Assembly: GCF_002854065.1 (NCBI RefSeq)
Contig: NZ_CP024147.1
Source: Escherichia coli
GTDB lineage: Bacteria; Pseudomonadota; Gammaproteobacteria; Enterobacterales; Enterobacteriaceae
Reading direction: 5' to 3' (one strand)
DNA: 64,000 bases
Under the pieces are notes generated by a model. That model had not been told where the DNA came from and ran no database searches. It saw only the letters and a program-made list of their open reading frames with translations. Positions 33,657 to 51,694 of this stretch are shown here, one piece after another. Position numbers and translations under genes: made by a program. Each line of letters starts with the position of its first letter. Position 1 is the first letter of the stretch.

Positions 33657-33907
33657 AACCGTTCCTTTGCAATACCGCTATTTTCTTGCCATCAGATGTT
33701 TCGACTATAGGGAGCGTAAGAGAACGAATGAAATTACCAATTAGAATGAGTAGTTCCTTAACGGAATAACGATTTGGCAAAGCTAATATCAAAAAGTGCT
33801 TAAGGCACCGGATTTCGGGCGTTTAGGAAGATTTGAAATTGTTTTAGCGCAGCGGCAGTTTCATACTATGGCGGTAAAAAAATTTGCATGGTATTTAAGG
33901 ACTCACT

Positions 33908-34945
33908 ATGTTTTCCGCATTGCGCCACCGTACCGCTGCCCTGGCGCTCGGCGTATGCTTTATTCTCCCCGTACACGCCTCGTCACCTAAACCTGGCGAT
34001 TTTGCTAATACCCAGGCACGACATATTGCTACTTTCTTTCCGGGACGCATGACCGGAACTCCTGCAGAAATGTTATCTGCCGATTATATTCGCCAACAGT
34101 TTCAGCAAATGGGTTATCGCAGTGATATTCGGACATTTAATAGTCGGTATATTTATACCGCCCGCGATAATCGCAAGAGCTGGCATAACGTGACGGGAAG
34201 TACGGTGATTGCCGCTCATGAAGGCAAAGCGCCGCAGCAGATCATCATTATGGCGCATCTGGATACTTACGCCCCGCTGAGCGATGCTGACGCCGATGCC
34301 AATCTCGGCGGGCTGACGTTACAAGGAATGGATGATAACGCCGCAGGTTTAGGTGTCATGCTGGAATTGGCAGAACGCCTGAAAAATACGCCTACCGAGT
34401 ATGGTATTCGATTTGTGGCGACCAGCGGCGAAGAGGAAGGGAAATTAGGCGCTGAGAATTTACTCAAGCGGATGAGTGACACCGAAAAGAAAAATACGCT
34501 GCTGGTGATTAATCTCGATAACTTAATTGTTGGCGATAAATTGTATTTCAACAGCGGTGTAAAAACCCCTGAAGCAGTAAGGAAATTAACGCGCGACAGG
34601 GCGCTGGCAATTGCGCGTAGTCATGGAATTGCCGCAACGACCAATCCGGGTTTGAATAAAAATTATCCGAAAGGCACTGGGTGTTGTAATGACGCAGAAA
34701 TATTCGACAAAGCGGGCATTGCTGTACTTTCGGTGGAAGCGACTAACTGGAATCTTGGGAATAAGGATGGTTATCAGCAACGCGCAAAAACAGCCGCATT
34801 CCCTGCGGGAAATAGCTGGCATGACGTAAGACTGGATAATCAACAGCATATTGATAAGGCACTTCCAGGAAGAATAGAACGTCGCTGCCGTGACGTTATG
34901 CGGATAATGCTACCACTGGTGAAGGAGCTGGCGAAGGCGTCTTGA
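33908..34945 (+). CDS. iap: Alkaline phosphatase isozyme conversion aminopeptidase
   Basis: 345-aa ORF with signal peptide and M28 peptidase features. Confidence 0.85.
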   Translation: MFSALRHRTAALALGVCFILPVHASSPKPGDFANTQARHIATFFPGRMTGTPAEMLSADYIRQQFQQMGYRSDIRTFNSRYIYTARDNRKSWHNVTGSTVIAAHEGKAPQQIIIMAHLDTYAPLSDADADANLGGLTLQGMDDNAAGLGVMLELAERLKNTPTEYGIRFVATSGEEEGKLGAENLLKRMSDTEKKNTLLVINLDNLIVGDKLYFNSGVKTPEAVRKLTRDRALAIARSHGIAATTNPGLNKNYPKGTGCCNDAEIFDKAGIAVLSVEATNWNLGNKDGYQQRAKTAAFPAGNSWHDVRLDNQQHIDKALPGRIERRCRDVMRIMLPLVKELAKAS

Positions 34946-35070
34946 TGGGTTTGAAATGATGACTCCCGTGCCTGCAGGAAATCAATGCCACCTGAAACAG
35001 AGAATAAAAAAGGGTGCAGGAGGCCAAACCATCACAATTCAATACGCGGGGTTTTACCCCCGCGTGGTGG

Positions 35071-35223
35071 CTACTTCTTCGATTCGTAAGCGAGAACTGC
35101 CTTAAACTCCATACCACGCTCTCTGATACTCAACTCACATAACGAGTCGCCTACCATGAGCGTGAATCCCAGTACTGTACAACACAGTACTATGATTGCC
35201 ACAAGGGCATATTTTGTTAGCAT
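35071..35223 (-). CDS. Hok-family type I toxin (hokX-like), intact 50-aa ORF
   Basis: [50 protein letters not shown]: TM helix plus conserved SLCEL...LAYES C-terminus; GGGAGG SD 6 nt upstream. Confidence 0.75.
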
Positions 35224-35430
35224 GTCTTGCCTCCCTGCAAAGAAGAGACTAACATCCGAATTGCTACGTTCGAACGCGAGCCTCAGGTTGATAGAAATAT
35301 CGCCTGGGGCTTTTGTCCATCTGGAACCTCGCGAATGCTTAACGCCAGACAGCCTCAAGCACCCGACGCCATTCTATACCTGATAATTCTTCCAGCGGCG
35401 TTCACGTTTAAAATCAGGAATGCTGCTCGC

Positions 35431-35470
35431 AAAATAAAAACGCCCCCATCATTTCTGACAGAGGCGTTTA
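35431..35470 (-). terminator. Likely cysJIH operon terminator
   Basis: Minus strand hairpin (aacgcctc...gggggcgtt) followed by TTTTTATTTT just downstream of cysH stop. Confidence 0.4.
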
Positions 35471-35486
35471 ATTTATCCGGCAATAT

Positions 35487-36221
35487 TTACCCTTCGTGTA
35501 ACCCACATTCCCTTTTTAAGCCAAAGAAACGCGTTTCTTCTTCCGCCATGCCGGGTTCCCATTTACGGGTTGTATGGGTATCGCCCACCGATAAATATCC
35601 TTCGTCCCATAATGGGTGATATTTCAGGCCATGTTTTTGCAGGTACTGATAAATAGTTCGGTTATCCCAGTCGATAATCGGCAGCACTTTAAATACGCCA
35701 CGCTGAATTGCCAGCACCGGTAAATTGGCGCGGCTGCCGGATTGTTCACGGCGCAGGCCAGCAAACCAGGTTTGCGCATTCAGTTCTTTTAGCGCCCGGT
35801 TCATCGGTTCGACTTTGTTGATGTCATTGTACTTTTCAATGCCTTCAACGCCCTGTTCCCACAGTTTTCCGTAGCGTGCTTCCTGCCAGGCTGCGCTTTC
35901 GGTAGCACGGTACACTTTCAGGTTGAGCTTGAGTTTGTCCGTTAACTCGTCAATAAAGCGGTAGGTTTCCGGGAACAAGTAACCGGTATCGGTGAGGATC
36001 ACTGGAATATCCGGGCGAATCTGATTCACCAGATGCAGGCTCACCGCCGCCTGAATGCCGAAGCTGGAAGAAAGCACATATTCACCGGGCAGATTATCCA
36101 GCGCCCAGGCTACGCGGCCTTCAGCGTCCAGTTTTTCCAGTTGGGCGTTAGTTTCCGCCAGCGCCAGAATGCGATCTACCTTCGGCAGTTCGTTCAGGGC
36201 GTTTAGATCGAGTTTGGACAT
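35487..36221 (-). CDS. cysH: Phosphoadenosine phosphosulfate reductase
   Basis: Start at [12 protein letters not shown] inside longer ORF; 244 aa; C-terminal ECGLH motif. Confidence 0.9.
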
Positions 36222-36242
36222 AGATTCCTCACTGTTTGCCTT

Positions 36243-36278
36243 GCCTGATGCGACGCTCACGCGTCTTATCAGGCCTAC
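36243..36278. repeat. REP (repetitive extragenic palindrome) element
   Basis: gcctgatgcgacgctcacgcgtcttatcaggcctac in cysH-cysI spacer. Confidence 0.5.
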
Positions 36279-36294
36279 AAGACCGGGCTGATGG

Positions 36295-38007
36295 TTAATC
36301 CCACAAATCGCGCGCCGGATCGAGCACCGGGCGAATGATGCCCGCACGCACCGTAAAGTCGCCGAAGCCTTCACCCGCTTCGCGCTCTTTCGCCCAGCGC
36401 CCTATCAGTTCATCAAGCGACGCCAGGATTTCCGGCTCGGTGATGTTTTCTTTATACATCCGTGGGATACGTGTCCCAATGCGGTTGCCGCCAAGATGCA
36501 GGTTGTAGCGACCCGGCGCTTTACCCACCAGGCCCACTTCCGCCAGCATCGCGCGACCACAACCGTTCGGGCAGCCTGTTACACGCATCACGATATGCTC
36601 ATCGCTGACACCATGTTTCGCCATTAAATTATCGATGTTGTCGATAAAAGACGGCAGGAAACGCTCCGCTTCCGCCATCGCCAGCGGGCAAGTCGGGAAT
36701 GACACGCAGGCCATTGAGTTTTCACGCTGCGGCGTGACGGCATTCATTAACCCGCTCTCTTTGGCGATCCTCTCGATCTTCGCTTTCTCACTTTCCGGCA
36801 CACCGGCGATGATCAGATTCTGGTTCGCCGTAATGCGGAAATCACCTTTGTGGATCTTTGCGATCTCCAGCAGGCCGGTTTTCAGCGGACGCCCCGGATA
36901 ATCAAGGATGCGACCATTTTCGATAAACAGCGTCAGGTGCCAGTTATCATCAATGCCCTTAACCCAGCCAATACGATCTCCGCGTCCGGTAAACTCATAC
37001 GGGCGAATCGGCTCGAATTTGATCCCCGCGCGACGTTCCACTTCCGCTTTAAATGTCTCAACACCCACGCGCTCCAGCGTGTATTTGGTTTTGGCATTTT
37101 TACGATCGGTACGGTTACCCCAATCGCGCTGAGTCGTCACGACGGCTTCCGCCACCGCCAGGGTATGCTCCAGCGGCAGATAACCAAACTCGCTCGCCGT
37201 GCGGGCGTAGGTTTTCTTATTACCGTGTTCGATGGAAAGCCCGCCGCCCACCAGCAGGTTAAAGCCTACCAGCTTGCCGTTTTCGGCGATTGCCACGAAG
37301 TTCATGTCGTTGGCGTGCAGATCGATATCGTTCTGTGGCGGGATCACTACCGTGGTTTTGAATTTACGCGGCAGGTAGGTCTGGCCGAGGATCGGTTCTT
37401 CATCAGTGGTGGCGACTTTTTCCTGATCGAGCCAGATCTCCGCATACGCGCGGGTACGCGGCAGCAGATGTTCCGAGATTTTCTTCGCCCACTCGTACGC
37501 TTCTGCGTGCAGCTGCGACTCGTAAGGGTTCGAGGTGCAGAGTACGTTACGGTTCATGTCGTTAGCGGTCGCCAGCGCATCAAGACCGACCGAGTGCAGC
37601 ATCTGGTGCACCGGTTTGACGTTCTTTTTCAGAATGCCGTGGAACTGGAATGTCTGGCGGTTGGTCAGGCGAATGCTGCCATAGATGGTGTTTTCACCGG
37701 CAAATTTATCGATCGCCTGCCACTGTTTGGTGGTGATAACTCCACCCGGCAGACGGCAGCGCAACAGCATCGCATGGCGCGGCTCCAGCTTCTGTTCAGC
37801 ACGTTCGGCGCGGATGTCGCGGTCATCCTGCTGATACATGCCGTGGAAGCGGATCAGCAGGAAGTTGTCGCCCTTAAAGCCGCCGGTCAGACCGTCGTTT
37901 AAATCTTCCGCAATGGTGCCGCGCAGGTAGTTGCTTTCAAGCTTCATGCGCTCGGCGTCTGTCAGTTTTCCTTCGACCACTAAAGGCCCTGGATGTTTTT
38001 CGCTCAT
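36295..38007 (-). CDS. cysI: Sulfite reductase hemoprotein beta subunit
   Basis: 570-aa ORF, siroheme/4Fe-4S Cys cluster. Confidence 0.9.
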
Positions 38008-40486: not shown

Positions 40487-40563
40487 TAAGAGTGTGGCGG
40501 CGGTCAATTTCCCTTAAGTAACGCTATGTTAGGGTGTTGTGTTCAGGATATCTGGGGCATGAC

Positions 40564-41835
40564 ATGGAAGACGACTGCGACATTATTATTATTGGTGCCG
40601 GTATTGCAGGCACCGCTTGCGCGTTACGCTGCGCGCGAGCGGGTTTATCCGTTTTGTTACTGGAACGCGCTGAAATCCCCGGCAGCAAAAATCTTTCCGG
40701 CGGGCGGTTATATACCCATGCACTCGCGGAACTCCTCCCTCAATTTCATCTGACCGCGCCTCTTGAACGACGCATCACTCACGAAAGCCTTTCCCTGTTA
40801 ACGCCGGATGGCGCAACGACGTTTTCCAGCTTACAGCCCGGCGGTGAATCCTGGAGTGTATTACGTGCACGGTTCGATCCGTGGCTGGTTGCCGAAGCCG
40901 AAAAAGAAGGTGTCGAATGCATCCCTGGTGCGACGGTGGATGCACTGTATGAAGAAAACGGCAGGGTGTGTGGTGTCATTTGTGGTGACGATATTCTCCG
41001 CGCCCGTTATGTGGTGCTGGCAGAAGGTGCCAACAGCGTCCTGGCTGAACGTCACGGGTTAGTGACTCGTCCTGCTGGCGAAGCGATGGCGTTGGGGATC
41101 AAAGAAGTGCTGTCGCTGGAAACATCCGCTATTGAAGAACGTTTTCATCTGGAGAATAACGAAGGCGCAGCGTTGCTGTTCAGCGGCGGAATCTGTGATG
41201 ACTTACCCGGCGGCGCATTTCTTTATACTAATCAACAAACGCTCTCGTTAGGGATTGTTTGCCCACTCTCTTCCCTTACGCAAAGTCGTGTTCCGGCAAG
41301 CGAGCTGCTTGCTCGCTTTAAAACGCATCCGGCAGTGCGCCCGCTTATCAAAAACACGGAATCACTGGAGTATGGTGCGCATCTGGTGCCAGAAGGTGGC
41401 TTGCACAGTATGCCGGTACAATACGCCGGTAACGGCTGGCTGCTGGTGGGCGATGCGTTGCGCAGTTGCGTCAATACCGGAATTTCTGTGCGCGGCATGG
41501 ATACGGCGCTAACTGGCGCGCAGGCGGCGGCACAAACACTGATAAGCGCCTGCCAGCACCGCGAGCCGCAAAATCTGTTTCCGCTTTATCATCACAACGT
41601 AGAGCGCAGCCTACTGTGGGATGTTCTACAGCGTTATCAGCATGTTCCGGCGCTTTTGCAACGCCCGGGATGGTACCGTACGTGGCCTGCGTTAATGCAG
41701 GATATTTCCCGCGATTTATGGGATCAGGGTGATAAACCTGTTCCACCGCTGCGCCAGTTACTCTGGCGTCATTTACGTCGTCATGGCTTGTGGAATCTGG
41801 CGGGCGATGTTATCAGGAGTGTTCGATGTCTGTAG
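40564..41835 (+). CDS. ygcN: FAD-dependent oxidoreductase, FixC/ETF-QO-like
   Basis: Start at MEDDCDIIIIGAGIAGTACA (Rossmann GxGxxG); 423 aa. Confidence 0.85.
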   Translation: MEDDCDIIIIGAGIAGTACALRCARAGLSVLLLERAEIPGSKNLSGGRLYTHALAELLPQFHLTAPLERRITHESLSLLTPDGATTFSSLQPGGESWSVLRARFDPWLVAEAEKEGVECIPGATVDALYEENGRVCGVICGDDILRARYVVLAEGANSVLAERHGLVTRPAGEAMALGIKEVLSLETSAIEERFHLENNEGAALLFSGGICDDLPGGAFLYTNQQTLSLGIVCPLSSLTQSRVPASELLARFKTHPAVRPLIKNTESLEYGAHLVPEGGLHSMPVQYAGNGWLLVGDALRSCVNTGISVRGMDTALTGAQAAAQTLISACQHREPQNLFPLYHHNVERSLLWDVLQRYQHVPALLQRPGWYRTWPALMQDISRDLWDQGDKPVPPLRQLLWRHLRRHGLWNLAGDVIRSVRCL

Positions 41836-42086
41836 CCCGTAATCTCTGGCGCGCTGCTGATGCGCCGCATATTGTTCCGGCTGACTCCGTTGAGCGCCAG
41901 ACGGCAGAACGATTAATTAACGCCTGCCCGGCAGGTCTTTTTGCGCTCACGCCGGAAGGCGACTTGCGTGTTGATTATCGCGGTTGCCTTGAGTGTGGCA
42001 CCTGCCGTTTGCTGTGCGACGAATCAACACTACAACAGTGGCGCTATCCACCTTCCGGATTCGGCATCACCTACCGCTTTGGATAA
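41826..42086 (+). CDS. ygcO: Ferredoxin-like protein, FixX-like
   Basis: 86 aa with CLECGTCRLLC motif; overlaps ygcN end. Confidence 0.8.
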   Translation: MSVARNLWRAADAPHIVPADSVERQTAERLINACPAGLFALTPEGDLRVDYRGCLECGTCRLLCDESTLQQWRYPPSGFGITYRFG

Positions 42087-42102
42087 ATAATAAGGATAAT
42101 TT

Positions 42103-42678
42103 ATGCCCCTCTTACACCTGCTCCGCCAGAATCCGGTGATTGCTGCCGTTAAAGATAATGCCAGCCTGCAACTGGCAATCCATTCTGAATGCCAATTTAT
42201 TTCCGTGTTGTACGGCAATATCTGCACCATCAGTAATATCGTTAAAAAGATTAAGAACGCCGGGAAATATGCTTTTATTCATGTTGATTTGCTGGAAGGC
42301 GCGTCAAATAAAGAAGTCGTGATTCAGTTTTTGAAACTGGTGACCGAGGCGGACGGCATTATCAGTACCAAAGCCTCAATGTTGAAAGCGGCAAGAGCGG
42401 AAGGTTTTTTCTGTATTCATCGCCTGTTTATTGTTGATTCAATTTCGTTTCACAACATTGATAAGCAAGTTGCGCAATCGAATCCGGATTGTATTGAGAT
42501 CCTGCCAGGCTGTATGCCCAAAGTGCTGGGCTGGGTGACGGAAAAAATCCGCCAACCGCTGATTGCTGGCGGGCTGGTATGCGATGAAGAAGATGCGCGT
42601 AATGCGATTAACGCGGGTGTCGTGGCGCTTTCCACCACGAATACCGGAGTCTGGACGTTAGCGAAAAAATTGCTTTGA
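42103..42678 (+). CDS. ygcP: GlpP-family antiterminator-like regulator
   Basis: 191-aa ORF, GlpP/G3P-antiterminator family. Confidence 0.8.
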   Translation: MPLLHLLRQNPVIAAVKDNASLQLAIHSECQFISVLYGNICTISNIVKKIKNAGKYAFIHVDLLEGASNKEVVIQFLKLVTEADGIISTKASMLKAARAEGFFCIHRLFIVDSISFHNIDKQVAQSNPDCIEILPGCMPKVLGWVTEKIRQPLIAGGLVCDEEDARNAINAGVVALSTTNTGVWTLAKKLL

Positions 42679-42712
42679 CGGGATAATCGTAACCAATTGA
42701 ATTTGGTTTGAT

Positions 42713-42781
42713 TTGTAGGCCGCACGCCACATCCGACATTCAGCGCCTGATGCGACGCTTAACACGTCTTATCAGGCCTAC
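42713..42781. repeat. REP element(s) between convergent ygcP and ygcQ
   Basis: tgtaggccg... and gcctgatgcgacgcttaacacgtcttatcaggcctac. Confidence 0.5.
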
Positions 42782-42825
42782 AGGTCCCCAGTCCAGAACC
42801 GTAGGCAGGATCATCCGGCAACACG

Positions 42826-43686
42826 TTATTGGCAATCTGCGTGAATGTTTGTCACCAGTGCCTCCAGCACCACTTTCCAGTCATCAACCACGCCAACATC
42901 TGCCTGTGAAAATACCGCTGCGCTGGCGTCATGATTAATCGCCACCACAAACTTGCTATTGCGTACGCCCGCCATTAACGCTGCTGCGCCAGAAGCGCCA
43001 ACAACAATACACACCTCAGGTGCCAGCAGATGTCCGGAAATACCAATCACTTTTTCAGCATCAACGCCACCGTTCATCACTCGCGCCCGACTGTAGCCCA
43101 CTTCGGCTCCCAGCTTTTCTGCCAGCATAGCGATTTCCTGGTTATCTGCCTCTCCGCCCTGCCCCACCACCAACACCCGTCTGGCCTCAGCTAATGGGTC
43201 GCGGGTAACATTTTTCAGGTTCTCTATACTAACCAGCCAGTCCGGAAGCGCACCTGGGACTATGTTCAGTTGCTGCATACCAGAGGGCAAAGTGGCATTT
43301 TTATCTGCTCCCGCCTGGCGCGCCAGGGAAAGACATAGCGGGCGTTTTTCTGTTTGCAGCGTCGCCGTTAGCGCATTTCCCCAGTGGGATTTGCGCACGC
43401 TTACGATTGGAATCTCTAACGAAGTCACCTGGCAGATGCTTGCACCATGTAAACGCCAGGCCAGCCGAGTCGACAGTTCATCGCCAAACGTTCCCGGCGG
43501 AAAGAGAACAACGTTCGCAGGCGTTCGCTGCCACTGTTCCACCAGCGCATCCAGCACCTGTTCCACCACTACGGGCTGTGGTTCTATTTGCCAGTGCGCC
43601 AGGGTACAACCGCTGAAATCCTGCGCCGCCAGCCAGCCCGCTAATGCGGCATTCTCCTGATTTATTGTCACAATTGCGATATTCAT
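42826..43686 (-). CDS. ygcQ: Electron transfer flavoprotein alpha-subunit-like (FixB-like)
   Basis: Start at MNIAIVTINQ inside longer ORF; 286 aa. Confidence 0.8.
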   Translation of the reverse strand: MNIAIVTINQENAALAGWLAAQDFSGCTLAHWQIEPQPVVVEQVLDALVEQWQRTPANVVLFPPGTFGDELSTRLAWRLHGASICQVTSLEIPIVSVRKSHWGNALTATLQTEKRPLCLSLARQAGADKNATLPSGMQQLNIVPGALPDWLVSIENLKNVTRDPLAEARRVLVVGQGGEADNQEIAMLAEKLGAEVGYSRARVMNGGVDAEKVIGISGHLLAPEVCIVVGASGAAALMAGVRNSKFVVAINHDASAAVFSQADVGVVDDWKVVLEALVTNIHADCQ

Positions 43687-44462
43687 GGCTGCATCCTTTG
43701 GCGTAAATAGTCCTGCCATAGCTTTTGCGCTTTTTCTGCTACCGTTTGCCCATCAATCAGCGTCGCTCCGCGTCGTTGCTCTGCTCTTGCCAGTTGCAGA
43801 CACTGCATCGCTGGCAATTCGGCAGCAACAGTTTTACGGATAATTTCCGCTTTCCCCGCAGCCATTCGCTGGCGCATTCCCGGTACTGGCAAGGCCACTT
43901 CACCGCACTGACGCACGGCAATCACCGCAGGCAAGCGAATCCGACAACAGCGCAGCCCATGTTCAGTACGCTGTTCGAGGGTGATAAACGGCGCGTCGAG
44001 AGTGAAACGCTCCACCTGGGTGAAGCATGGCCAGCCCAGCATTTCCGCCAGCAAAAATGGCGTTTGCCCATTCTGCCCTTCGCTGCTTTGGCAGCCGGTA
44101 ATTATCAGATCCAGCGGATTCTGACGCTGCCATTCGGCAATATGGCGAGCGACAAATTCCGACGCAAAGCGCAGATCTGCCGCCGTCTCCAGCAATACAG
44201 CTTCCTCAAACCCAAGAGCCATGAGATAGAGCAGCCAGTGTAACGCCCGTTCATCCCCCATGCTCAACGCGGTTAAAGACATCGGCGTACCGTTTTTTCT
44301 CTGCGCCAACAGCAGCGCGGCGGCAGCCTGTTCATCAGCACCGAGTAAACTTCGCAGTAGCGAAACATCCGGTCCGCTATTACCCTGAGCCGCCGCCTGC
44401 CACTCTTTTTCCGCCAGCATTCCGGCATCCGGTTCGGCTTTAAACGCTAACAGAATGTTCAT
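43683..44462 (-). CDS. ygcR: Electron transfer flavoprotein beta-subunit-like (FixA-like)
   Basis: 259-aa ORF, overlaps ygcQ start. Confidence 0.8.
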   Translation of the reverse strand: MNILLAFKAEPDAGMLAEKEWQAAAQGNSGPDVSLLRSLLGADEQAAAALLLAQRKNGTPMSLTALSMGDERALHWLLYLMALGFEEAVLLETAADLRFASEFVARHIAEWQRQNPLDLIITGCQSSEGQNGQTPFLLAEMLGWPCFTQVERFTLDAPFITLEQRTEHGLRCCRIRLPAVIAVRQCGEVALPVPGMRQRMAAGKAEIIRKTVAAELPAMQCLQLARAEQRRGATLIDGQTVAEKAQKLWQDYLRQRMQP

Positions 44463-45777
44463 TCGCACCTCCTACATTTCCCGCCGCCACCAGCGGGAGG
44501 GCTTTGGTTTCTGGTGCCCATAGCCAGGTCACAACAAAACCAACCAACAACACTGCCGCCAGGAGCAATAAGGTGACTTGCATTCCCCACTGCGCCAGCA
44601 CCCACGGCAGCAGGCCAGTACTTACCGCCGCCCCCAACCGACTCATGGCGGTGGCAAAACCGACACCCAGCGAGCGAATGTCAGTAGGAAAACTTTCCGC
44701 AGGCAAAATGCCCACCAGATTACTGACTGCCGAAATGGTGGTGCTGAAGAGAACAAAAAGCAGTAGCGTTAATGAACTGCCGGAAGGCAAACAGGCCATC
44801 ACTACCAGCGTTGCCGCCAGCAGCAAAAAACTTCCCAGCAAAAACTTGCGATGTGCCAGCAGGTGCGTCAGAACTAATCCCAGCAGCGCGCCCACAATTA
44901 ACAACGCATTAAGCATCAGGCTGGCAGTCAGCGCATCTTCCAGTCCAATAGTCTGGGCGATAGTTGGCAGCCAGGTATAAATCACAAACCATGGGATTAC
45001 GAGGCAGACAAAGAAGACGCTGTTAAACGCCGTGCGCCGCCAGTAGCGCAAAGAGAACAAGGTTTTGATGTGTTTATGGGTCGCCGTTGCCACTTCATCG
45101 CCCAGTAAAACATGGGGACCAAAATAGCGATGCACGATAGCGTGAGCTTCTGCAAAACGCCCCTGGCGCAGTAGCCAGCGTGGCGATTCTGGCGTTCCCC
45201 AGCGTAATAACGTAATCAACAACGCGGGCAGAGCTGCCGATGCCAGCAGCCAGCGCCAGGCCTCCGGGTTTTCGGAAATAAAGTGATGTCCGGCAATACT
45301 TGCCAACACATAGCCTACGGTCCACACCACGCTGAATGCGCCCAGCAAAATACCGCGATGGCGGCGCGGGGAAAATTCAGCCAGCAAGGTGTGACCTACT
45401 GAGTAATCGCCTCCCAGACCAATGCCGATCAAAATGCGCAGCCCAATAAGATGCTCTGGCGTGGTGGCAAAAAATTGCAAGAACGAAGCGAGCGTAATCA
45501 GCAAAAAGCTGAAGGTGAAGATTTTTTGCCGACCAATATGGTCGGAGATCCACCCAAGAACCAGGCTGCCAAGAAACAAACCAAGGAGCGCCGAGCCGCC
45601 GATCATTCCCGCCATAAACGGCGTCAGTTGCATGGCGGGCGTAAGTTGAATAATGGCGTAACCAATGACGCCGAGAACATAACCGTCGGTCAGGTGTGCG
45701 CCGAAAGTGAGCGCAGCAATTCGACAGTGAAAACGGTTAAGCGGTAAATCATCCATTCGCACCGGTGAAGTGTTCAT
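44440..45777 (-). CDS. ygcS: MFS sugar-porter-family transporter
   Basis: Start at MNTSPVRMDDLPLNRFH inside longer ORF; 445 aa, 12 TM. Confidence 0.8.
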   Translation of the reverse strand: MNTSPVRMDDLPLNRFHCRIAALTFGAHLTDGYVLGVIGYAIIQLTPAMQLTPFMAGMIGGSALLGLFLGSLVLGWISDHIGRQKIFTFSFLLITLASFLQFFATTPEHLIGLRILIGIGLGGDYSVGHTLLAEFSPRRHRGILLGAFSVVWTVGYVLASIAGHHFISENPEAWRWLLASAALPALLITLLRWGTPESPRWLLRQGRFAEAHAIVHRYFGPHVLLGDEVATATHKHIKTLFSLRYWRRTAFNSVFFVCLVIPWFVIYTWLPTIAQTIGLEDALTASLMLNALLIVGALLGLVLTHLLAHRKFLLGSFLLLAATLVVMACLPSGSSLTLLLFVLFSTTISAVSNLVGILPAESFPTDIRSLGVGFATAMSRLGAAVSTGLLPWVLAQWGMQVTLLLLAAVLLVGFVVTWLWAPETKALPLVAAGNVGGANEHSVSV

Positions 45778-45870
45778 CTTTACCCCTTCATTGTCCGGTA
45801 ATAAGAACGGCTTCTCGCCTGAGAAGCCGAAAAGGCAACGCCCCATCATCGCAGAACGCTGCCTGACACA

Positions 45871-47325
45871 TTATTTTTCAATCGGATAGATAGTACCCGT
45901 ATTCATAATGCCGTTAGGATCGAACTGCTTTTTCAGCCCTTCCAGCAACGCCCACGCGCTGCCGTGTTCCAGCTTGCTCCAGTGAACGCGATGTTTACCG
46001 ATACCGTGGTGGTGCACCATCGAACCACCGAGGCGAATGGTTTCTTCGCAAATGATTTTGTTGAGCGGATTGTGGTACTTGTCGATTTCCTCTTCCGGCT
46101 TACAGTTGACAACGTTGTAGTCGTAGACGAAGTACATGTTGGTGCCGTTCTGATAGCTATGAGAGGAGTGACCGCCCAGCATAGTGATGTCGTCGGCGTG
46201 CGGGAACTCGGTACGAATACGGTTAATAACGCTTTCGTAGATTTCGTGGATGCAGCTCCAGCAGCCGGACACTTCGGTAGTAAAGCCCATGTTGCCGGTT
46301 TTGAGGATCTGCACACGTTCGGCAGCCACTTTATCCGGTCCCCAGTTCAGGTTGTTAAACCAGGTTTCGATCAGCTTGCTGTCCACGCGTTGGCATTGCG
46401 GGTAGCGGGCAACGATTTCCGCAATCCCTTCGCCCGTCGCCTTCGCAATGCGAGGGTTACCTTCAGCCATAAAGATCAGCACGCATTTTCCGTCGGCAAA
46501 ATGGGTGAAGTGTTGGGTGCCATCTTCAGCGTCATACAAACGAGCGATCGACGGACGATACCCTTCCACCATGATTTCACGCAGGATGTTGAAGCCGGTT
46601 TTCATGTCTTCCAGGATATAGCCGTAGAAGAGGTTGTTTTCCGGGGTGAATTTAAAGATTTTCACTGTTACTTCAGTGATATAGCACAATGCACCTTCGT
46701 TGCCGATGATGATGTGACGAATGTCCGGGCCAGCCGCGCGGCGTGGCACGTTTTTAATGCGTGTGACGGTGCCATCAGCCAATACTGCTTCCAGACCAAC
46801 GACCATATCTTCGATTGCGCCGTAGAGTGTGGAGAACTGCCCGATACTGCGGGTTGCTACCAGGCCGCCCATCTGCGCCAGCGGCTTTGACTGCGGAGAA
46901 TGCCCCGTGGTGTAACCTTTTTCACGCAACGCGTTTTCCAGCACTTCCAGGGGAACGCCACATTGCGCCGTCGCCTGCATATTCTCAATATCAATATTAA
47001 TGATTTGATTCATGGCGGAGCCGTCGAGCACCACCGAGTTTTCTACAACAGTTTCCAGCCCACCTTCGGTGGCGGAAGCACCGGTACGCGGCACACCGTT
47101 AATTTTGTGCGCATTCATAAAATTCAGCACACGGGATATTTGCTCTGTGGAACCGAGTTTTACGACCGCTGCCGGAATCGGCAAAGTATAAATGCCATGA
47201 ATATCCGGAAATTTACGAAAACGGTCAATACTGTTCTTCTTTAATACTGTTTCATCGGTAATTACGCGATCTGCACCAACAATTTCCTTTAGCTGGTCGA
47301 CAATCGCTGCGCGAGATAAAGACAT
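45871..47325 (-). CDS. ygcU: FAD-linked oxidase
   Basis: 484-aa ORF, FAD-binding PCMH-type domain. Confidence 0.85.
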   Translation of the reverse strand: MSLSRAAIVDQLKEIVGADRVITDETVLKKNSIDRFRKFPDIHGIYTLPIPAAVVKLGSTEQISRVLNFMNAHKINGVPRTGASATEGGLETVVENSVVLDGSAMNQIINIDIENMQATAQCGVPLEVLENALREKGYTTGHSPQSKPLAQMGGLVATRSIGQFSTLYGAIEDMVVGLEAVLADGTVTRIKNVPRRAAGPDIRHIIIGNEGALCYITEVTVKIFKFTPENNLFYGYILEDMKTGFNILREIMVEGYRPSIARLYDAEDGTQHFTHFADGKCVLIFMAEGNPRIAKATGEGIAEIVARYPQCQRVDSKLIETWFNNLNWGPDKVAAERVQILKTGNMGFTTEVSGCWSCIHEIYESVINRIRTEFPHADDITMLGGHSSHSYQNGTNMYFVYDYNVVNCKPEEEIDKYHNPLNKIICEETIRLGGSMVHHHGIGKHRVHWSKLEHGSAWALLEGLKKQFDPNGIMNTGTIYPIEK

Positions 47326-47394
47326 AGTAATTCCTTCCTGATAATAAAAATGGAATAATCATTAATAAGAGAAAACAGAAACCACCGTTATGGG

Positions 47395-48180
47395 TTAGCG
47401 CACTAAATAACCGCCATCAACTACTAATAAATGCCCGTTGACATAATTCGATGCCGGACTTGCGAGGAATACGGCTGCGCCCATTAAATCCTGAGTATCG
47501 CCCCAACGGTTTGCCGGAATATGATCAAGAACGCGCTGATTGGTTTCTGGATTACTACGTGTCGCCAGCGTAATATCTGTTGCATAATAGCCAGGGGCGA
47601 TACCATTTACCTGAATATTATATTGACCTAGTTCATCACAATAAGCTTTGGTGAACCCGGCAAGAGCATGTTTAGTGGCAGAATATGCAGGTGACCATTG
47701 TCCACCTAAGTAAGAGAATAATGAACAGATATTAATTATTTTACCGCTTTTCTGCGGGATCATAATTTTTGCCGCTTCATAGCTTAACTCGAATGCGGCG
47801 GTCAGGTTCACATCAATCATCGGGTCCCAGTCGGCACGACCGAAGTCCAGCACCTTATTCAGCTTACAAATACCGGCATTGTTAACCAGAATATCGACGG
47901 TACCGAAACGTTCGCAACAGGCGGCGATTATCTTCTGCGGCGCGCCTTCTGCGGTGATATCCACCTGCATGAAGTCCACCTCAACACCCTGTTTTTCAAT
48001 CATTTCCTTTGTTTCGCCGTTATCTTTGACGAAGCTAGGAATAAAGACATTTGCGCCTGCTTTGGCCAACGCCATGGCAAATGCCTGGCCTAAACCGCTA
48101 TTCCCGCCGGTAACAATTGCGGTTTTACCTTTCAGGGAGAAAAAATCCATTGAGAACGCATTGAGAGATTCGATTGACAT
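47395..48180 (-). CDS. ygcW: Short-chain dehydrogenase/reductase
   Basis: Start at MSIESLNAF inside longer ORF; TGGNSGLG cofactor motif; 261 aa. Confidence 0.8.
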   Translation of the reverse strand: MSIESLNAFSMDFFSLKGKTAIVTGGNSGLGQAFAMALAKAGANVFIPSFVKDNGETKEMIEKQGVEVDFMQVDITAEGAPQKIIAACCERFGTVDILVNNAGICKLNKVLDFGRADWDPMIDVNLTAAFELSYEAAKIMIPQKSGKIINICSLFSYLGGQWSPAYSATKHALAGFTKAYCDELGQYNIQVNGIAPGYYATDITLATRSNPETNQRVLDHIPANRWGDTQDLMGAAVFLASPASNYVNGHLLVVDGGYLVR

Positions 48181-48499
48181 AGTTAGCTCCAATTTCCGTA
48201 AGGCAAAAAAAAAAGAAAGGTAACTTCCCCCGCGAGAGGGAAGTTACCTTTCTCATTATCTCTGGTAACTGGAGATAATTTTTAGCATAAGGGCATAACT
48301 GCTAATGTGATCGTAATCACAGTGTGATATTCGCATTATCAAATAGTTTTAAAAAGCAGAAGCGTGATTACTCTCACACAACACCTCTGCTTTCCATGTT
48401 ATTTCTTATTGCAATTACTAGAGACCTGAGAAAAGTAATCCACCTGAAAGGGCGGCTTACTTTTCTCTTTTTTTTGTCTATTACAAATGGGAATACGAT

Positions 48500-49777
48500 A
48501 TGCAACACAACTCATATCGCCGTTGGATAACCCTCGCGATAATTAGTTTTAGCGGCGGCGTTAGTTTCGACCTGGCTTATTTACGTTATATTTATCAAAT
48601 TCCCATGGCGAAATTTATGGGATTCAGCAATACCGAGATAGGCTTAATAATGAGTACCTTTGGTATTGCTGCTATTATTCTTTATGCCCCCAGCGGCGTT
48701 ATTGCCGATAAATTTTCACACCGCAAAATGATTACTTCCGCGATGATCATTACCGGATTACTGGGTCTGTTAATGGCAACGTATCCACCGCTGTGGGTAA
48801 TGCTCTGTATTCAGGTCGCCTTTGCGATAACAACGATTTTAATGCTGTGGTCGGTGTCGATTAAAGCCGCATCGTTGCTTGGCGATCATAGCGAGCAAGG
48901 GAAAATTATGGGCTGGATGGAAGGGCTGCGCGGCGTCGGTGTAATGTCGCTGGCGGTGTTTACCATGTGGGTCTTTTCTCGCTTTGCACCGGATGACAGC
49001 GCCAGCCTGAAAACGGTCATTATCATCTACAGTGTGGTTTACATCTTGTTGGGGCTTCTGTGCTGGTTTTTTGTTAGCGATAACAACAACCTGCGCAGTG
49101 CCAATAACGAAGAAAAACAGTCATTCCAGCTTAGCGATATCCTGGCCGTTTTGCGTATCAGTACCACCTGGTATTGCAGCATGGTGATTTTTGGTGTCTT
49201 CACCATCTACGCCATTCTGAGTTACTCCACCAACTATCTGACCGAAATGTACGGCATGTCGCTGGTGGCGGCGAGCTACATGGGGATTGTGATCAACAAA
49301 ATCTTCCGCGCGCTGTGCGGCCCACTTGGCGGCATAATCACCACCTACAGCAAAGTGAAATCCCCTACCCGCGTGATCCAAATCCTTTCCGTACTCGGCC
49401 TGCTGGCGTTAACTGCCCTGCTCGTCACGAACTCTAACCCGCAATCGGTCGCGATGGGGATTGGCCTGATTTTACTGCTGGGATTCACCTGTTACGCCTC
49501 ACGCGGGCTGTACTGGGCCTGCCCTGGCGAAGCGAGAACACCGTCTTACATTATGGGCACCACGGTAGGTATTTGCTCGGTGATTGGATTCCTGCCGGAT
49601 GTCTTCGTTTACCCAATTATCGGCCACTGGCAAGACACCCTGCCCGCAGCAGAAGCCTACCGCAATATGTGGCTGATGGGCATGGCGGCGCTTGCCATGG
49701 TGATTGTCTTTACCTTTTTGCTGTTCCAAAAAATTCGTACTGCTGATAGCGCCCCCGCAATGGCTAGCAGCAAGTAA
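48500..49777 (+). CDS. yqcE: MFS transporter
   Basis: 425-aa polytopic membrane ORF. Confidence 0.8.
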   Translation: MQHNSYRRWITLAIISFSGGVSFDLAYLRYIYQIPMAKFMGFSNTEIGLIMSTFGIAAIILYAPSGVIADKFSHRKMITSAMIITGLLGLLMATYPPLWVMLCIQVAFAITTILMLWSVSIKAASLLGDHSEQGKIMGWMEGLRGVGVMSLAVFTMWVFSRFAPDDSASLKTVIIIYSVVYILLGLLCWFFVSDNNNLRSANNEEKQSFQLSDILAVLRISTTWYCSMVIFGVFTIYAILSYSTNYLTEMYGMSLVAASYMGIVINKIFRALCGPLGGIITTYSKVKSPTRVIQILSVLGLLALTALLVTNSNPQSVAMGIGLILLLGFTCYASRGLYWACPGEARTPSYIMGTTVGICSVIGFLPDVFVYPIIGHWQDTLPAAEAYRNMWLMGMAALAMVIVFTFLLFQKIRTADSAPAMASSK

Positions 49778-49803
49778 GCCAGGAAAATTACAGGAGAAAA
49801 ATC

Positions 49804-51282
49804 ATGTCGAAGAAATACATCATAGGGATTGATGGCGGAAGTCAGAGCACAAAAGTGGTGATGTACGATCTGGAAGGTAACGTGGTTTGCGAAGGCAAAG
49901 GTTTATTGCAGCCGATGCACACGCCAGATGCCGATACCGCAGAACATCCTGACGACGATTTATGGGCATCATTATGTTTTGCCGGTCACGATTTGATGAG
50001 TCAGTTTGCCGGGAATAAAGAAGATATTGTCGGTATTGGTCTGGGATCCATCCGTTGCTGCCGTGCGTTATTGAAAGCCGATGGCACGCCTGCTGCGCCG
50101 TTGATTAGCTGGCAGGATGCACGCGTAACGCGTCCCTACGAACACACTAATCCTGACGTGGCCTATGTCACCTCTTTTTCGGGTTATCTGACGCATCGCT
50201 TAACCGGCGAGTTTAAAGACAATATCGCCAACTATTTTGGTCAGTGGCCGGTGGATTATAAGACCTGGGCATGGAGTGAAGATGCTGCGGTAATGGATAA
50301 GTTTAATATCCCCCGTCATATGCTGTTTGATGTGCAAATGCCTGGCACCGTCCTCGGACATATCACACCACAAGCCGCACTGGCGACACATTTCCCGGCA
50401 GGACTGCCGGTTGTTTGTACCACCAGTGATAAACCGGTAGAAGCTCTGGGGGCCGGATTACTGGATGATGAAACGGCGGTAATTTCTCTTGGCACCTACA
50501 TCGCGCTGATGATGAACGGCAAAGCACTGCCGAAAGATCCGGTGGCGTACTGGCCGATTATGTCTTCTATTCCGCAAACATTGCTGTATGAAGGTTACGG
50601 TATCCGTAAAGGCATGTGGACGGTGAGCTGGCTGCGCGACATGCTAGGCGAGTCGTTAATTCAGGATGCCAGGGCGCAGGATCTTTCACCGGAAGATTTA
50701 CTCAACAAAAAAGCTTCTTGTGTGCCGCCAGACTGTAATGGTCTGATGACGGTGCTGGACTGGCTGACCAATCCGTGGGAACCGTACAAACGCGGGATTA
50801 TGATCGGCTTTGATTCCAGCATGGATTACGCATGGATATATCGTTCGATACTGGAAAGCGTGGCGCTGACGCTGAAGAACAATTACGACAATATGTGTAA
50901 TGAAATGAATCACTTTGCGAAGCATGTGATCATTACTGGCGGCGGTTCGAACAGCGATCTGTTTATGCAGATTTTTGCCGACGTGTTCAACCTTCCGGCA
51001 CGACGTAACGCCATTAACGGTTGTGCAAGTCTGGGGGCAGCGATTAATACCGCGGTAGGTCTGGGGCTATACCCGGATTACGCAACGGCTGTCGATAAAA
51101 TGGTTCGCGTGAAAGATATCTTTATACCGATTGAGAGCAATGCCAAACGCTACGACGCGATGAATAAAGGCATTTTCAAAGACCTAACCAAACATACTGA
51201 TGTGATTCTGAAAAAATCGTATGAAGTGATGCATGGGGAATTGGGAAATGCGGATTCGATCCAGAGCTGGTCGAATGCGTAA
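49804..51282 (+). CDS. ygcE: FGGY-family carbohydrate kinase
   Basis: 492-aa ORF starting MSKKYIIGIDGGSQSTK. Confidence 0.85.
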   Translation: MSKKYIIGIDGGSQSTKVVMYDLEGNVVCEGKGLLQPMHTPDADTAEHPDDDLWASLCFAGHDLMSQFAGNKEDIVGIGLGSIRCCRALLKADGTPAAPLISWQDARVTRPYEHTNPDVAYVTSFSGYLTHRLTGEFKDNIANYFGQWPVDYKTWAWSEDAAVMDKFNIPRHMLFDVQMPGTVLGHITPQAALATHFPAGLPVVCTTSDKPVEALGAGLLDDETAVISLGTYIALMMNGKALPKDPVAYWPIMSSIPQTLLYEGYGIRKGMWTVSWLRDMLGESLIQDARAQDLSPEDLLNKKASCVPPDCNGLMTVLDWLTNPWEPYKRGIMIGFDSSMDYAWIYRSILESVALTLKNNYDNMCNEMNHFAKHVIITGGGSNSDLFMQIFADVFNLPARRNAINGCASLGAAINTAVGLGLYPDYATAVDKMVRVKDIFIPIESNAKRYDAMNKGIFKDLTKHTDVILKKSYEVMHGELGNADSIQSWSNA

Positions 51283-51329
51283 GTGAGGAAGGCCGGGCGG
51301 GAAACAGCACGGCCTGAACATACCTGAAT

Positions 51330-51500
51330 GGTTATCCCCGCTGACGCGGGGAACTCTCTAAACATAACCTATTATTAATTAATGATTTTTTAAGCCAGTC
51401 ACAATCTACCAACTTTACAGTATCACACAAACAACACATCCATCATGTTAAAGAGCACTTAACCCATTGATTAAAAAGGTAAATATTTAAAATAACTCTA
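51330..51500 (-). CDS. placeholder
   Basis: placeholder. Confidence 0.
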
Positions 51501-51694
51501 TACAAACTAAAATCTACCAAACTTTACCGCAATAATTTTCACTCCAGCGAAAAATTAACGCCACAGAATTTGTAGAGAATGATAATGATTAGTTCAGGAT
51601 GGGCAAAATGGAGGTTTTTCAGAGACGACAAAGAATATAAATGAGTAGAAGTCTTTACAGGTTCCACCCATTTATAACGCTTATAAATGTTTAA

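Follow-up and report, generated by a model that had tools for sequence, protein, structure and literature searches.

The 319-bp spacer between the divergent genes ygcW and yqcE of Escherichia coli holds two paralogous leader RNAs of about 70 nt, which we propose to be controlled by YgcP, an antiterminator-like protein encoded in the same gene cluster. The cluster consists of ten intact genes in a 10.7-kb stretch of the chromosome between queD and queE (Table 1). Gene calls were taken from the open reading frame (ORF) listing of the 64,000-nucleotide stretch analyzed here (the window) and from the RefSeq annotation of a 99.9% identical genome. Both sources agree with an earlier note on this DNA, which had reported ten adjacent genes that are also present in K-12, where all ten products are annotated as "putative". 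The same note had called the cluster coherent but uncharacterized, a description that holds because a full-text literature search under the gene names returned no substrate assignment. The genes form three transcription units rather than one, namely ygcNOP (+), ygcWUSRQ (-), and yqcE-ygcE (+).

That the leaders represent a new cis-regulatory RNA class, set apart from Rfam 15 and from two GlpP-Ugp loci of the Bacillus cereus group, is well supported. The regulatory model, in which YgcP acts as an antiterminator at both leaders, is likely to be correct.

Leader RNAs of the ygcW and yqcE operons

The hairpin on the ygcW side of the spacer spans 19 bp (folding z = -5.7), and that on the yqcE side has an 11-bp stem that contains an inner stem (z = -3.9). 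The U-tracts behind them, U10 and U8, respectively, stop 24 nt short of the ATG of ygcW and of yqcE. Upstream of both hairpins lies the sequence (A/G)UUAC(U/C)AGAGA-N3-4-UGAGAAA(A/G)GUAA, and the motif CAGUUACUAGAG-N4-GAGAAAAGUAAC is common to both leaders of the window and to the 117 full-length matches described below. When loci retrieved by their YgcU homologues were searched for the pattern, the same sequence was recovered far beyond E. coli, and an alignment of 60 non-identical copies (A2) has the consensus CAGUUACUAGAGA-nnnn-GAGAAAAGUAACUUCC-loop-GGAAGnuGCUUUUCUC-U7-9.

Two mutually exclusive helices in the leaders are supported by this alignment. The anti-terminator helix NUUACU/AGUAAN' is paired in 93.8% of cells, compared with 14–56% when the partner strand is slid, and it covaries, one pair being GC in 40 sequences and AU in 19 and another UA in 50 and CG in 6. 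The lower stem of the terminator is paired in 99.4% of cells, with double changes from AU to CG (4) and from AU to GC (7). Moreover, changes in alignment column 31 are matched by changes in either of the two positions with which it can pair, as a switch predicts. While the 3' arm has not yet been made, the nascent leader folds into the small hairpin at -6.7 and -1.4 kcal/mol, whereas folding of the full leader favors the terminator by 14–20 kcal/mol, suggesting that the default state is "off" and that the alternative needs stabilization from outside.

Neither leader of the window matched any Rfam 15 family at E values up to 1, and no match at the gathering score was obtained in five distant loci, the Halobacillus leader giving only noise at E values up to 10. 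Weak matches to rliE, naRNA4, and snoRNAs were likewise dismissed as noise. RefSeq does not annotate the element, even though 5063 of 5426 E. coli genomes contain the yqcE copy; K-12 has both copies.

Evidence that the hairpins terminate transcription in vivo comes from the Term-seq analysis of K-12 grown in LB by Adams et al. (PMC7815308, supplementary file 3). The 3' end at 2900311 (-), equivalent to about 48219 of the window, lies 38 nt upstream of ygcW and is represented by 40,640 reads with an intrinsic-terminator score of 15.8, and the 3' end at 2900556 (+), equivalent to about 48464, lies 36 nt upstream of yqcE and is represented by 1,557 reads with a score of 11.4 (PMC7815308). Both ends have low Rho scores and fall outside the Rho-termination regions, and the Term-seq table notes no regulatory element at either of them (PMC7815308). 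Terminating leaders would account for these two strong and hitherto unexplained 3' ends. The earlier note had guessed at antitermination and had suggested a search for a leader upstream of ygcS or yqcE; the guess is borne out by the leaders and the 3' ends, and the leaders lie upstream of yqcE and ygcW but not of ygcS.

An alignment of the spacer across 13 enterobacterial genera (footprint A3) contains six conserved islands, which comprise the two leaders, two CRP boxes, TGcTAAAAAT, and CATGTTATT. The box on the ygcW side, TGTGATCGTAATCACA, is a published CRP site with a footprint Kd of about 1.7 nM (PMC12871828), and it had been predicted earlier by PhyloScan. The core of the CRP-like box on the yqcE side, CGTGATTACTCTCACA, is invariant in the 13 genera, and yqcE-ygcE has been listed as Crp-activated (PMC8085971). 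The centers of both boxes lie about 41–43 bp upstream of the leader starts, with about 42 bp given for ygcW and about 41 bp for yqcE, a spacing that fits class II activation, and CRP may thus activate both operons in this way. In a generic promoter scan, sites were less numerous than in shuffled sequence and the conserved extended -10 elements escaped detection, and the footprint was used in its place. Because the two operons share the leader and the CRP boxes, co-regulation, the absence of which would refute the reading of the earlier note by its own account, is indicated for ygcWUSRQ and yqcE-ygcE but not for ygcNOP, which has no leader.

It could be argued that the hairpins are plain bidirectional terminators or insulators without conditional read-through and that the operons are poorly expressed remnants. 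The ygcW hairpin, a near-perfect palindrome, obtains a score on the other strand as well, the ygc genes are barely mentioned in expression studies, and the genes for the electron transfer flavoprotein (ETF) evolve fast. However, each terminator follows its own promoter and CRP box and directly precedes the gene in the sense strand, and the upstream NUUACU box, which covaries with the 5' arm of the terminator, would be superfluous in an insulator. In Firmicutes and Actinomycetes, the element stands before operons that are unidirectional, and the U, W, P, and E proteins are strongly conserved across phyla. We therefore regard simple insulation as extremely improbable.

To follow the leader beyond E. 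coli, a covariance model, R1, was built from the leader alignment and run on the window and on 84 sources. In the window, R1 gave exactly two full-length matches, and the remaining match was the antisense half of the palindromic ygcW hairpin. In the 84 sources, it gave 117 full-length matches, the first gene downstream being W in 57, yqcE in 43, a BCCT transporter gene in 6, U in 4, and an OpuA-type operon in 2. The leader was found in Enterobacterales, Vibrionaceae, Negativicutes, Clostridia, halophilic Bacilli, Enterococcus, and Actinomycetes. Clostridial operons contain an additional, internal copy, in the gap between kinase and YgcU (L063 9848-9914, L065 9826-9915, and L068 8713-8800), implying that YgcU and the ETF genes are gated apart from the kinase and the short-chain dehydrogenase/reductase (SDR).

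The distribution of the leader follows that of YgcP. When tblastn was combined with R1, all 63 loci with a YgcP-type gene had at least one leader, including those on the Streptomyces clavuligerus megaplasmid and on an Enterococcus gilvus replicon. Conversely, no leader was found in 19 of the 24 loci that lack such a gene, among them complete Desulfobacterota, SAR324, and Alkalihalobacillus loci that have LysR or sigma-54 regulators instead; the other five either are truncated near the module or carry the gene on a different contig. YgcP matches PDB entry 3kts over residues 11–184 (E 2e-27), PF04309 was present in 120 of 120 YgcP homologues among the matches listed, and RefSeq names the protein a glycerol-3-phosphate responsive antiterminator.

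A metagenome scan with the 20-nt leader core returned mostly E. coli. Thirteen marine metagenome contigs also carried the core upstream of a phage terminase small-subunit gene, and these were rejected as chance matches, as they had neither a terminator stem nor an R1 match; the gene downstream encodes 183 aa. This terminase-linked pattern, seen in L112, L115, L120, L123, L145, L152, L163, L170, L173, and L205, is conserved within one phage group.

In B. subtilis, GlpP together with glycerol-3-phosphate disrupts the terminators in the leaders of glpD, glpFK, and glpTQ, each of which consists of a promoter, a GlpP site, and a terminator (PMC9604022). On the basis of this GlpP-like arrangement and of the FGGY kinase in the regulon, we propose that CRP governs initiation and YgcP governs antitermination. 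CRP-cAMP would activate the two divergent promoters on the ygcW and yqcE sides. Each leader of about 70 nt would fold by default into the strong intrinsic terminator, and transcription would stop 25–35 nt before ygcW or yqcE. The trigger would be YgcP loaded with a phosphorylated compound, presumably the product of the FGGY kinase YgcE. YgcP would then stabilize the weak upstream hairpin NUUACU...AGUAAN' with its conserved AGAG...GAGAAA loop, which would use up the 5' arm of the terminator and allow read-through into ygcWUSRQ and yqcE-ygcE.

A conserved and covarying RNA with mutually exclusive helices between promoter and gene could also be a riboswitch that senses a metabolite by itself, with YgcP as an enzyme or accessory factor, and the GlpP-family barrel is enzyme-like (3kts and 1vkf are structural-genomics entries). 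However, the conserved part beyond the terminator is a hairpin of 6–7 bp with a loop of 13–17 nt, which is too small for known aptamers and matches no Rfam family. The leader accompanies the YgcP gene without exception and is absent from complete loci with LysR or sigma-54 activators, and the GlpP family is a demonstrated ligand-dependent antiterminator in B. subtilis (PMC9604022). A riboswitch is thus very unlikely, and antitermination by YgcP is the reading that we carry forward.

The conserved core and a proposed pathway

Gene content was clustered for 85 loci, 82 of which contain U. Gene presence and identity between clusters were scored by tblastn, which also took the place of the actinomycete ORF calls, these being unreliable at high GC. 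In the 82 loci with U, the SDR gene W is present in 76, the kinase gene E in 72, the ETF alpha and beta genes in 61 and 59, and P in 56 by ORF calls and in 63 by tblastn. Judged by gene content, the conserved core is YgcP, the SDR YgcW, the FGGY kinase YgcE, and the flavoenzyme YgcU. ETF genes are absent from the clusters of Erwiniaceae, halophilic Bacilli, and Actinomycetes, which leaves P-W-U-E as the minimal module, as on the Streptomyces plasmid, and N and O were found only in the Enterobacterales versions. The ETF and FixCX-like genes, which the earlier note had counted as parts of the system, are therefore present in E. coli but accessory.

Orthologues of YgcU with 64–99% identity occur in Enterobacterales, Vibrionaceae, Desulfobacterota, SAR324, Negativicutes, Clostridia, Bacilli, and Actinomycetes. 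The protein combines FAD_binding_4 (PF01565) with FAD-oxidase_C (PF02913), and its best match among solved structures is alkyl-dihydroxyacetone phosphate synthase (ADPS), with a profile E value of 1e-55 compared with 4e-36 for the next family. Arg419, Tyr578, and His615–617 of ADPS align with Arg262, Tyr398, and His438–440 of YgcU, which are invariant in 13 YgcU orthologues, and the ADPS mutant structures R419H and Y578F mark the same alignment positions. Likewise, ADPS is the top fold match of the YgcU model (TM 0.75), at an identity of about 23–25%. The generic "FAD-linked oxidase" of the earlier note is thus replaced by an enzyme with the catalytic signature of alkyl-dihydroxyacetone phosphate (alkyl-DHAP) synthase. 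Its context of ETF, SDR, kinase, and betaine-type transporter genes suggests a reaction other than that of ADPS, probably a redox reaction.

The relatives of the two other core enzymes suggest how a substrate might be prepared for YgcU. YgcW scores 350 bits with the KduD model (cut-off 369) and is also nearest to gluconate 5-dehydrogenase, both of which oxidize the CHOH adjoining a terminal CH2OH, and the nearest relatives of YgcE are LsrK and xylulokinase. The reactions of these relatives imply that R-CHOH-CH2OH is converted to R-CO-CH2-OPO3, which we infer to be the dihydroxyacetone phosphate (DHAP)-like head that an ADPS-type active site would bind. E. coli YgcE is 42–49% identical to the cluster kinases of Serratia, Erwinia, Pantoea, and Rahnella and 53–58% identical to those of Firmicutes, while the neighboring YqcE is 68–79% identical to its versions in the same four genera; these identities seem to reflect an exchange of the kinase gene between lineages.

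In the pathway that we propose, the substrate would be a terminal 1,2-diol whose head is quaternary-ammonium or zwitterionic, and it would enter through YgcS and/or YqcE. YgcW would oxidize the penultimate CHOH to a ketone, and YgcE would phosphorylate the terminal CH2OH to give the DHAP-like X-CH2-CO-CH2-OPO3. YgcU would then work on C1 by flavin-N5 chemistry of the alkyl-DHAP-synthase type and exchange two electrons with the ETF YgcRQ, which the FixCX-like YgcNO would couple to the quinone pool. The products would be the free head group and a compound at the triose-phosphate level. The order of these steps is deduced from the related enzymes, and we judge this scheme for kinase, SDR, and flavoenzyme to be as probable as its opposite.

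The electron-transfer proteins resemble known families at a distance. YgcN scores 384 bits with PRK10015 and 368 bits with FixC (cut-off 610), YgcO 84 bits with FixX (cut-off 166), YgcQ 64–76 bits with ETF alpha, and YgcR at most 41 bits with ETF beta, all below the cut-offs. The ETF and FixCX-like proteins of E. coli share only 52–79% identity with those of Citrobacter, Klebsiella, or Enterobacter, and YgcU, YgcW, and YgcP of the same loci are 91–97% identical; the low values reflect either relaxed constraint or replacement of the electron-transfer genes.

Electrons could instead flow from YgcNO and YgcRQ to YgcU, which would reductively remove an alpha-substituent, such as trimethylamine, from a phosphoketone. 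YgcN and YgcO are closest to FixC/YdiS and FixX, the ETF genes of anaerobes are flanked on one side by YgcU and on the other by a second 2-hydroxyacid dehydrogenase, which is LctD-like and a possible electron donor, and carnitine reduction by way of FixABCX is an established precedent. However, the aerobic Halobacillus, Streptomyces, and Saccharopolyspora as well as the Erwiniaceae keep YgcU without a linked ETF, a pattern that fits an oxidase or dehydrogenase more easily than a reductase fed by a low-potential donor. We consider reversed flow unlikely, although the exchange between YgcU and ETF in our scheme may run in either direction.

The class of substrate is suggested mainly by transporters and neighboring genes. 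In clusters from outside Enterobacterales, transport is linked to a BCCT protein (14 loci) or to a betaine ATP-binding cassette (ABC) system of the OpuA/OpuC type (nine loci and Enterococcus); neither occurs together with YgcS in one locus, and no sugar ABC or phosphotransferase system (PTS) was the linked transporter in any non-enteric lineage of the loci examined. YqcE co-occurs with BCCT in Photobacterium and Eubacterium, suggesting that YqcE probably has a different role. YgcS scores 138 bits with the organic-cation family TIGR00898, just behind the sugar porters (144.5 bits), and overexpression of this NiaP homologue speeds nicotinamide conversion and raises the yield of nicotinamide mononucleotide (PMC8601175).

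Leader-controlled operons of Bacillota contain an MttB-superfamily methyltransferase, a PanB-like enzyme, and OpuA, and the nearest solved relative of the methyltransferase is glycine betaine methyltransferase (E 1e-47). The Sporomusa and Desulfobacula loci add a corrinoid protein and a methyltetrahydrofolate methyltransferase. Aerobic clusters add an aldehyde dehydrogenase resembling betaine aldehyde dehydrogenase (BADH), a class-III-like alcohol dehydrogenase, a YghZ/YdjG-type aldo-keto reductase, and a homologue of the formaldehyde-activating enzyme (Fae). The MttB-type, corrinoid-protein, BADH-like, and Fae-like genes lie within or beside operons under leader control. Together, these neighbors point to a methylated quaternary amine, either in the substrate or as a product, and a quaternary-amine diol is our tentative choice of substrate class, held with less than even confidence. 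A zwitterionic glyceryl conjugate would reconcile the diol chemistry with the betaine- or anion-type transporters and with the enzymes that follow choline or betaine, and candidates would be glycerophosphocholine and the ether-linked head group of a deacylated betaine lipid. Since YgcU is about 70% identical across phyla, the substrate is unlikely to differ between lineages.

The earlier note had instead proposed uptake, phosphorylation, and flavin-dependent oxidation of a "sugar or polyol". In a fuller form of this reading, the compound would be neutral, such as a tetritol, pentitol, or ketose, and YgcU would be a polyol-phosphate dehydrogenase feeding ETF in the manner of GlpK/GlpD or EryA/EryB. 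[quoted passage not shown] However, the transporters of non-enteric loci are BCCT or OpuA/OpuC and never sugar ABC or PTS systems, genes for MttB methyltransferases, corrinoid proteins, BADH-like aldehyde dehydrogenases, and Fae-like proteins recur, and YgcS scores on TIGR00898 and was picked out as a NiaP homologue (PMC8601175). The class is thus probably too generic, and we consider a neutral polyol doubtful.

The most specific form of the quaternary-amine reading is a cross-phylum regulon, switched by a new class of antiterminator (a "YgcP box"), that converts a glyceryl or terminal-diol conjugate of a quaternary ammonium compound by oxidation and phosphorylation to a 1-substituted DHAP, which YgcU splits at C1. 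As a whole, it is unlikely to be right in every part. If it were, YgcU would be a soluble, ETF-linked relative of ADPS that runs the ether-lipid reaction for degradation, and the freed betaine or choline would pass to MttB-type demethylation in anaerobes.

Taken together, regulation plus chemistry is our best overall explanation, and we lean slightly toward it. Several points weigh against it. On the regulatory side, ygcP is not behind a leader but sits with ygcNO, and binding of the leader RNAs by YgcP is presumed. R1 matches nothing in two canonical GlpP-Ugp loci of the B. cereus group, suggesting that the RNA target of YgcP differs from that of at least this GlpP branch. The Term-seq 3' ends lie 10–11 nt upstream of the end of the U-tract, within the 3' arm of the hairpin, in the A-U-rich lower stem at the edge of the G+C-containing upper stem. 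We assume that exonucleases trim the A-U-rich lower stem of the terminated leaders, and termination may alternatively occur after the upper stem only.

On the chemical side, the YgcU model is of moderate quality (pLDDT 71.7, low in the HHH loop), and Foldseek does not separate ADPS from the D-lactate dehydrogenases, which rank closely behind, so that the reading of YgcU rests on the sequence profile and the motifs. In addition, ADPS, which swaps acyl for alkyl on DHAP and needs no external electron carrier, is no net redox enzyme and has no ETF partner. The ETF/FixCX-like role may be dispensable, given that these proteins diverge faster than U, W, and P and are absent in several lineages. The E. 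coli cluster has MFS transporters and no BCCT, and its quaternary-amine inference therefore rests on analogy and on the indirect nicotinamide result. Moreover, E. coli already hydrolyzes glycerophosphodiesters, which makes glycerophosphocholine a less obvious need.

The ygc genes belong to the conserved y-genes of the best-studied bacterium and occur in at least 93% of complete E. coli genomes, and the leaders offer a ready-made sensor for them. A leader reporter should respond only to a substrate that is taken up and phosphorylated, which turns an open-ended phenotype search into an inducer screen. The leader motif is also defined well enough to be added to RNA-family libraries. If the regulatory model is true, GlpP-type antitermination would be widespread, extending to Gram-negatives and Actinomycetes and beyond the glycerol genes of Firmicutes. 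If the chemistry is true, gut, plant, marine, and hypersaline bacteria would be linked to the turnover of choline or betaine conjugates, the pathway would feed the methylamine pool relevant to trimethylamine formation and methanogenesis, and it would represent a degradative counterpart of the flavoenzyme that forms ether lipids.

Gene content and surroundings of the cluster

The coordinates of all features are collected in Table 1. The annotated ATG of ygcN is at 40564; the earlier note gave 40534, where the longest ORF has its first GTG, 30 nt farther upstream. The family assignments of that note all hold in NCBIfam and PDB sequence searches. None of the ten genes reaches a curated NCBIfam equivalog cut-off, every best match lying below it, which suggests that they are paralogues of known enzymes and not equivalogs. 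A 2026 paper refers to YgcU as "an additional FAD-binding oxidoreductase", and the "ygcO" of a PTS-Ntr review is a misspelling of ycgO.

Table 1 Positions in the window of the ygc genes, leader RNAs, and promoter elements
Feature	Position	Strand	Assignment	Basis
ygcN	40564-41835	+	FixC/YdiS-like FAD oxidoreductase, putative ETF:quinone oxidoreductase	NCBIfam
ygcO	41826-42086	+	FixX-like ferredoxin	NCBIfam
ygcP	42103-42678	+	GlpP-family (PF04309), proposed RNA-binding antiterminator	PDB 3kts match
ygcQ	42826-43686	-	ETF alpha-like subunit	NCBIfam
ygcR	43683-44462	-	ETF beta-like subunit	NCBIfam
ygcS	44440-45849	-	MFS transporter (AAHS, sugar-porter and organic-cation-like; NiaP homologue)	NCBIfam
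ygcU	45871-47325	-	FAD_binding_4 flavoenzyme, alkyl-DHAP-synthase-type catalytic residues R262, Y398, H438-H440	
ygcW	47395-48180	-	SDR, closest to KduD and gluconate 5-dehydrogenase	NCBIfam, PDB sequence search
ygcW leader RNA	48202-48274	-		covariance model R1, 76.6 bits
ygcW anti-terminator helix	48270-48264 with 48248-48242	-		alignment, folding
ygcW terminator	hairpin 48254-48213, U-tract 48212-48205	-		folding, covariance model, Term-seq
Candidate extended -10 (TGcTAAAAA)	48279-48287	-	putative ygcW promoter	phylogenetic footprint
CRP box TGTGATCGTAATCACA	48307-48322	.	ygcW side	footprint across genera
Second CRP-like box CGTGATTACTCTCACA	48363-48378	.	yqcE side	core invariant in 13 genera
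yqcE leader RNA	48409-48478	+		covariance model R1, 72.7 bits
yqcE anti-terminator helix	48414-48419 with 48434-48439	+		alignment, folding
yqcE terminator	hairpin 48428-48467, U-tract 48468-48475	+		folding, covariance model, Term-seq
yqcE	48500-49777	+	MFS transporter, anion:cation-symporter type	NCBIfam
ygcE	49804-51282	+	FGGY kinase; nearest solved relative LsrK	NCBIfam, PDB sequence search

The cluster was matched in 5425 of 5426 complete E. coli genomes, and in 5060 the match covers 80% or more of its length. Identity to this stretch is at least 99% in only five of the 5425 matching genomes, suggesting that the window comes from an uncommon E. coli lineage; most genomes are 95–99% identical, K-12 97.9%, and one isolate from wastewater and one from stool in The Gambia match it most closely. 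In Enterobacteriaceae, the cluster adjoins queD and cysJIH in nearly all loci that reach that far, and queE lies on its other side in about 20 of approximately 27 loci, whereas Serratia, Rahnella, Budvicia, and Erwiniaceae have it at other chromosomal places. The two queuosine genes, queD and queE, thus seem to have been separated by insertion of the cluster.

The gap between ygcE and queE (51283-51694) contains a single degenerate type I-E CRISPR repeat, GGTTATCCCCGCTGACGCGGGGAACTC, at 51328-51356, and the AT-rich stretch that follows was taken as the array leader. K-12 has a seven-repeat array at the same place (L089 13014-13408), which in the lineage of the window has shrunk to a single repeat. 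In the window, 33883-36300 contains iap, directly followed by a hok/gef gene and then by cysH, and the annotation shows no cas genes between iap and cysH. The near-identical genome L001 differs there only by an IS421 insertion. In K-12, CRISPR-1 and the cas operon occupy this position. Between the convergent ygcP and ygcQ, at 42705-42790, lies a palindrome resembling the repetitive extragenic palindromic (REP) and BIME elements, GCCTGATGCGACGCTT...CGTCTTATCAGGCCTAC, which gave weak, sub-threshold matches to the REP-derived naRNA4 on both strands.

Relation to known systems

The closest regulatory parallel is GlpP of B. subtilis. Both systems have a PF04309 protein, and in both, a promoter, a protein site, and an intrinsic terminator lie in the 5' untranslated region of several operons. 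In each case, the presumed phosphorylated effector is the product of an FGGY kinase that belongs to the regulon, and catabolite control is added on top, by CcpA in B. subtilis and by CRP for ygc. However, identity between YgcP and the GlpP homologues from the Ugp loci of the B. cereus group is only about 32%, the genes under ygc control are not glycerol genes, and the ygc system is also found in Gram-negatives and Actinomycetes. The ribonucleic antiterminators (RATs) of BglG, SacY, and LicT follow the same logic, as a weak antiterminator hairpin overlaps the 5' arm of a terminator and is stabilized by a protein. However, BglG, SacY, and LicT are CAT-PRD proteins under PTS phosphorylation, whereas YgcP is a PF04309 barrel with a presumed small-molecule ligand, and the RAT elements differ from the ygc leaders in RNA sequence and shape. 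The lack of an Rfam match for either ygc leader extends to RAT-type families, should Rfam contain one.

YgcR, YgcQ, YgcN, and YgcO constitute the third paralogous set of ETF and FixC/FixX proteins in E. coli, next to FixABCX and YdiQRST. FixABCX serves carnitine reduction, a quaternary-amine pathway, and the transporter of that pathway, CaiT, is a BCCT protein. The ygc counterparts score far below the equivalog cut-offs and their genes are split over two operons; the partner enzyme of the ygc set is a flavoprotein of the vanillyl-alcohol oxidase (VAO) type and not an acyl-CoA dehydrogenase.

YgcU shares the catalytic Arg, Tyr, and HHH loop with ADPS/AGPS (EC 2.5.1.26). However, about 150–180 N-terminal residues of ADPS are absent from YgcU, whose alignments begin at ADPS residues 137–180, and YgcU is of soluble size, with 484 aa compared with 584–658 aa. 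The N-terminal extension of ADPS helps to form the lipid-binding tunnel and contributes to membrane association. The gene neighbors of YgcU encode ETF, SDR, and kinase rather than lipid enzymes, and YgcU is probably a net redox enzyme. The missing N-terminal feature and the redox partners thus indicate that YgcU is not an ADPS.

With LctBCD and the ETF-linked D-2-hydroxyacid dehydrogenases, YgcU has in common that an FAD_binding_4 enzyme is encoded beside ETF beta and alpha genes, and LctD is among the PDB matches of YgcU. The D-2-hydroxyacid dehydrogenases (GlcD, D-LDH, D2HGDH, and LctD) carry a metal-binding EHG motif, whereas YgcU has VHHHGIGK instead and scores 142 bits with the GlcD model (cut-off 568). 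The second oxidase of the anaerobe clusters, in turn, is LctD-like and has (G/S)EHG(L/V)G along with an extra His-rich segment.

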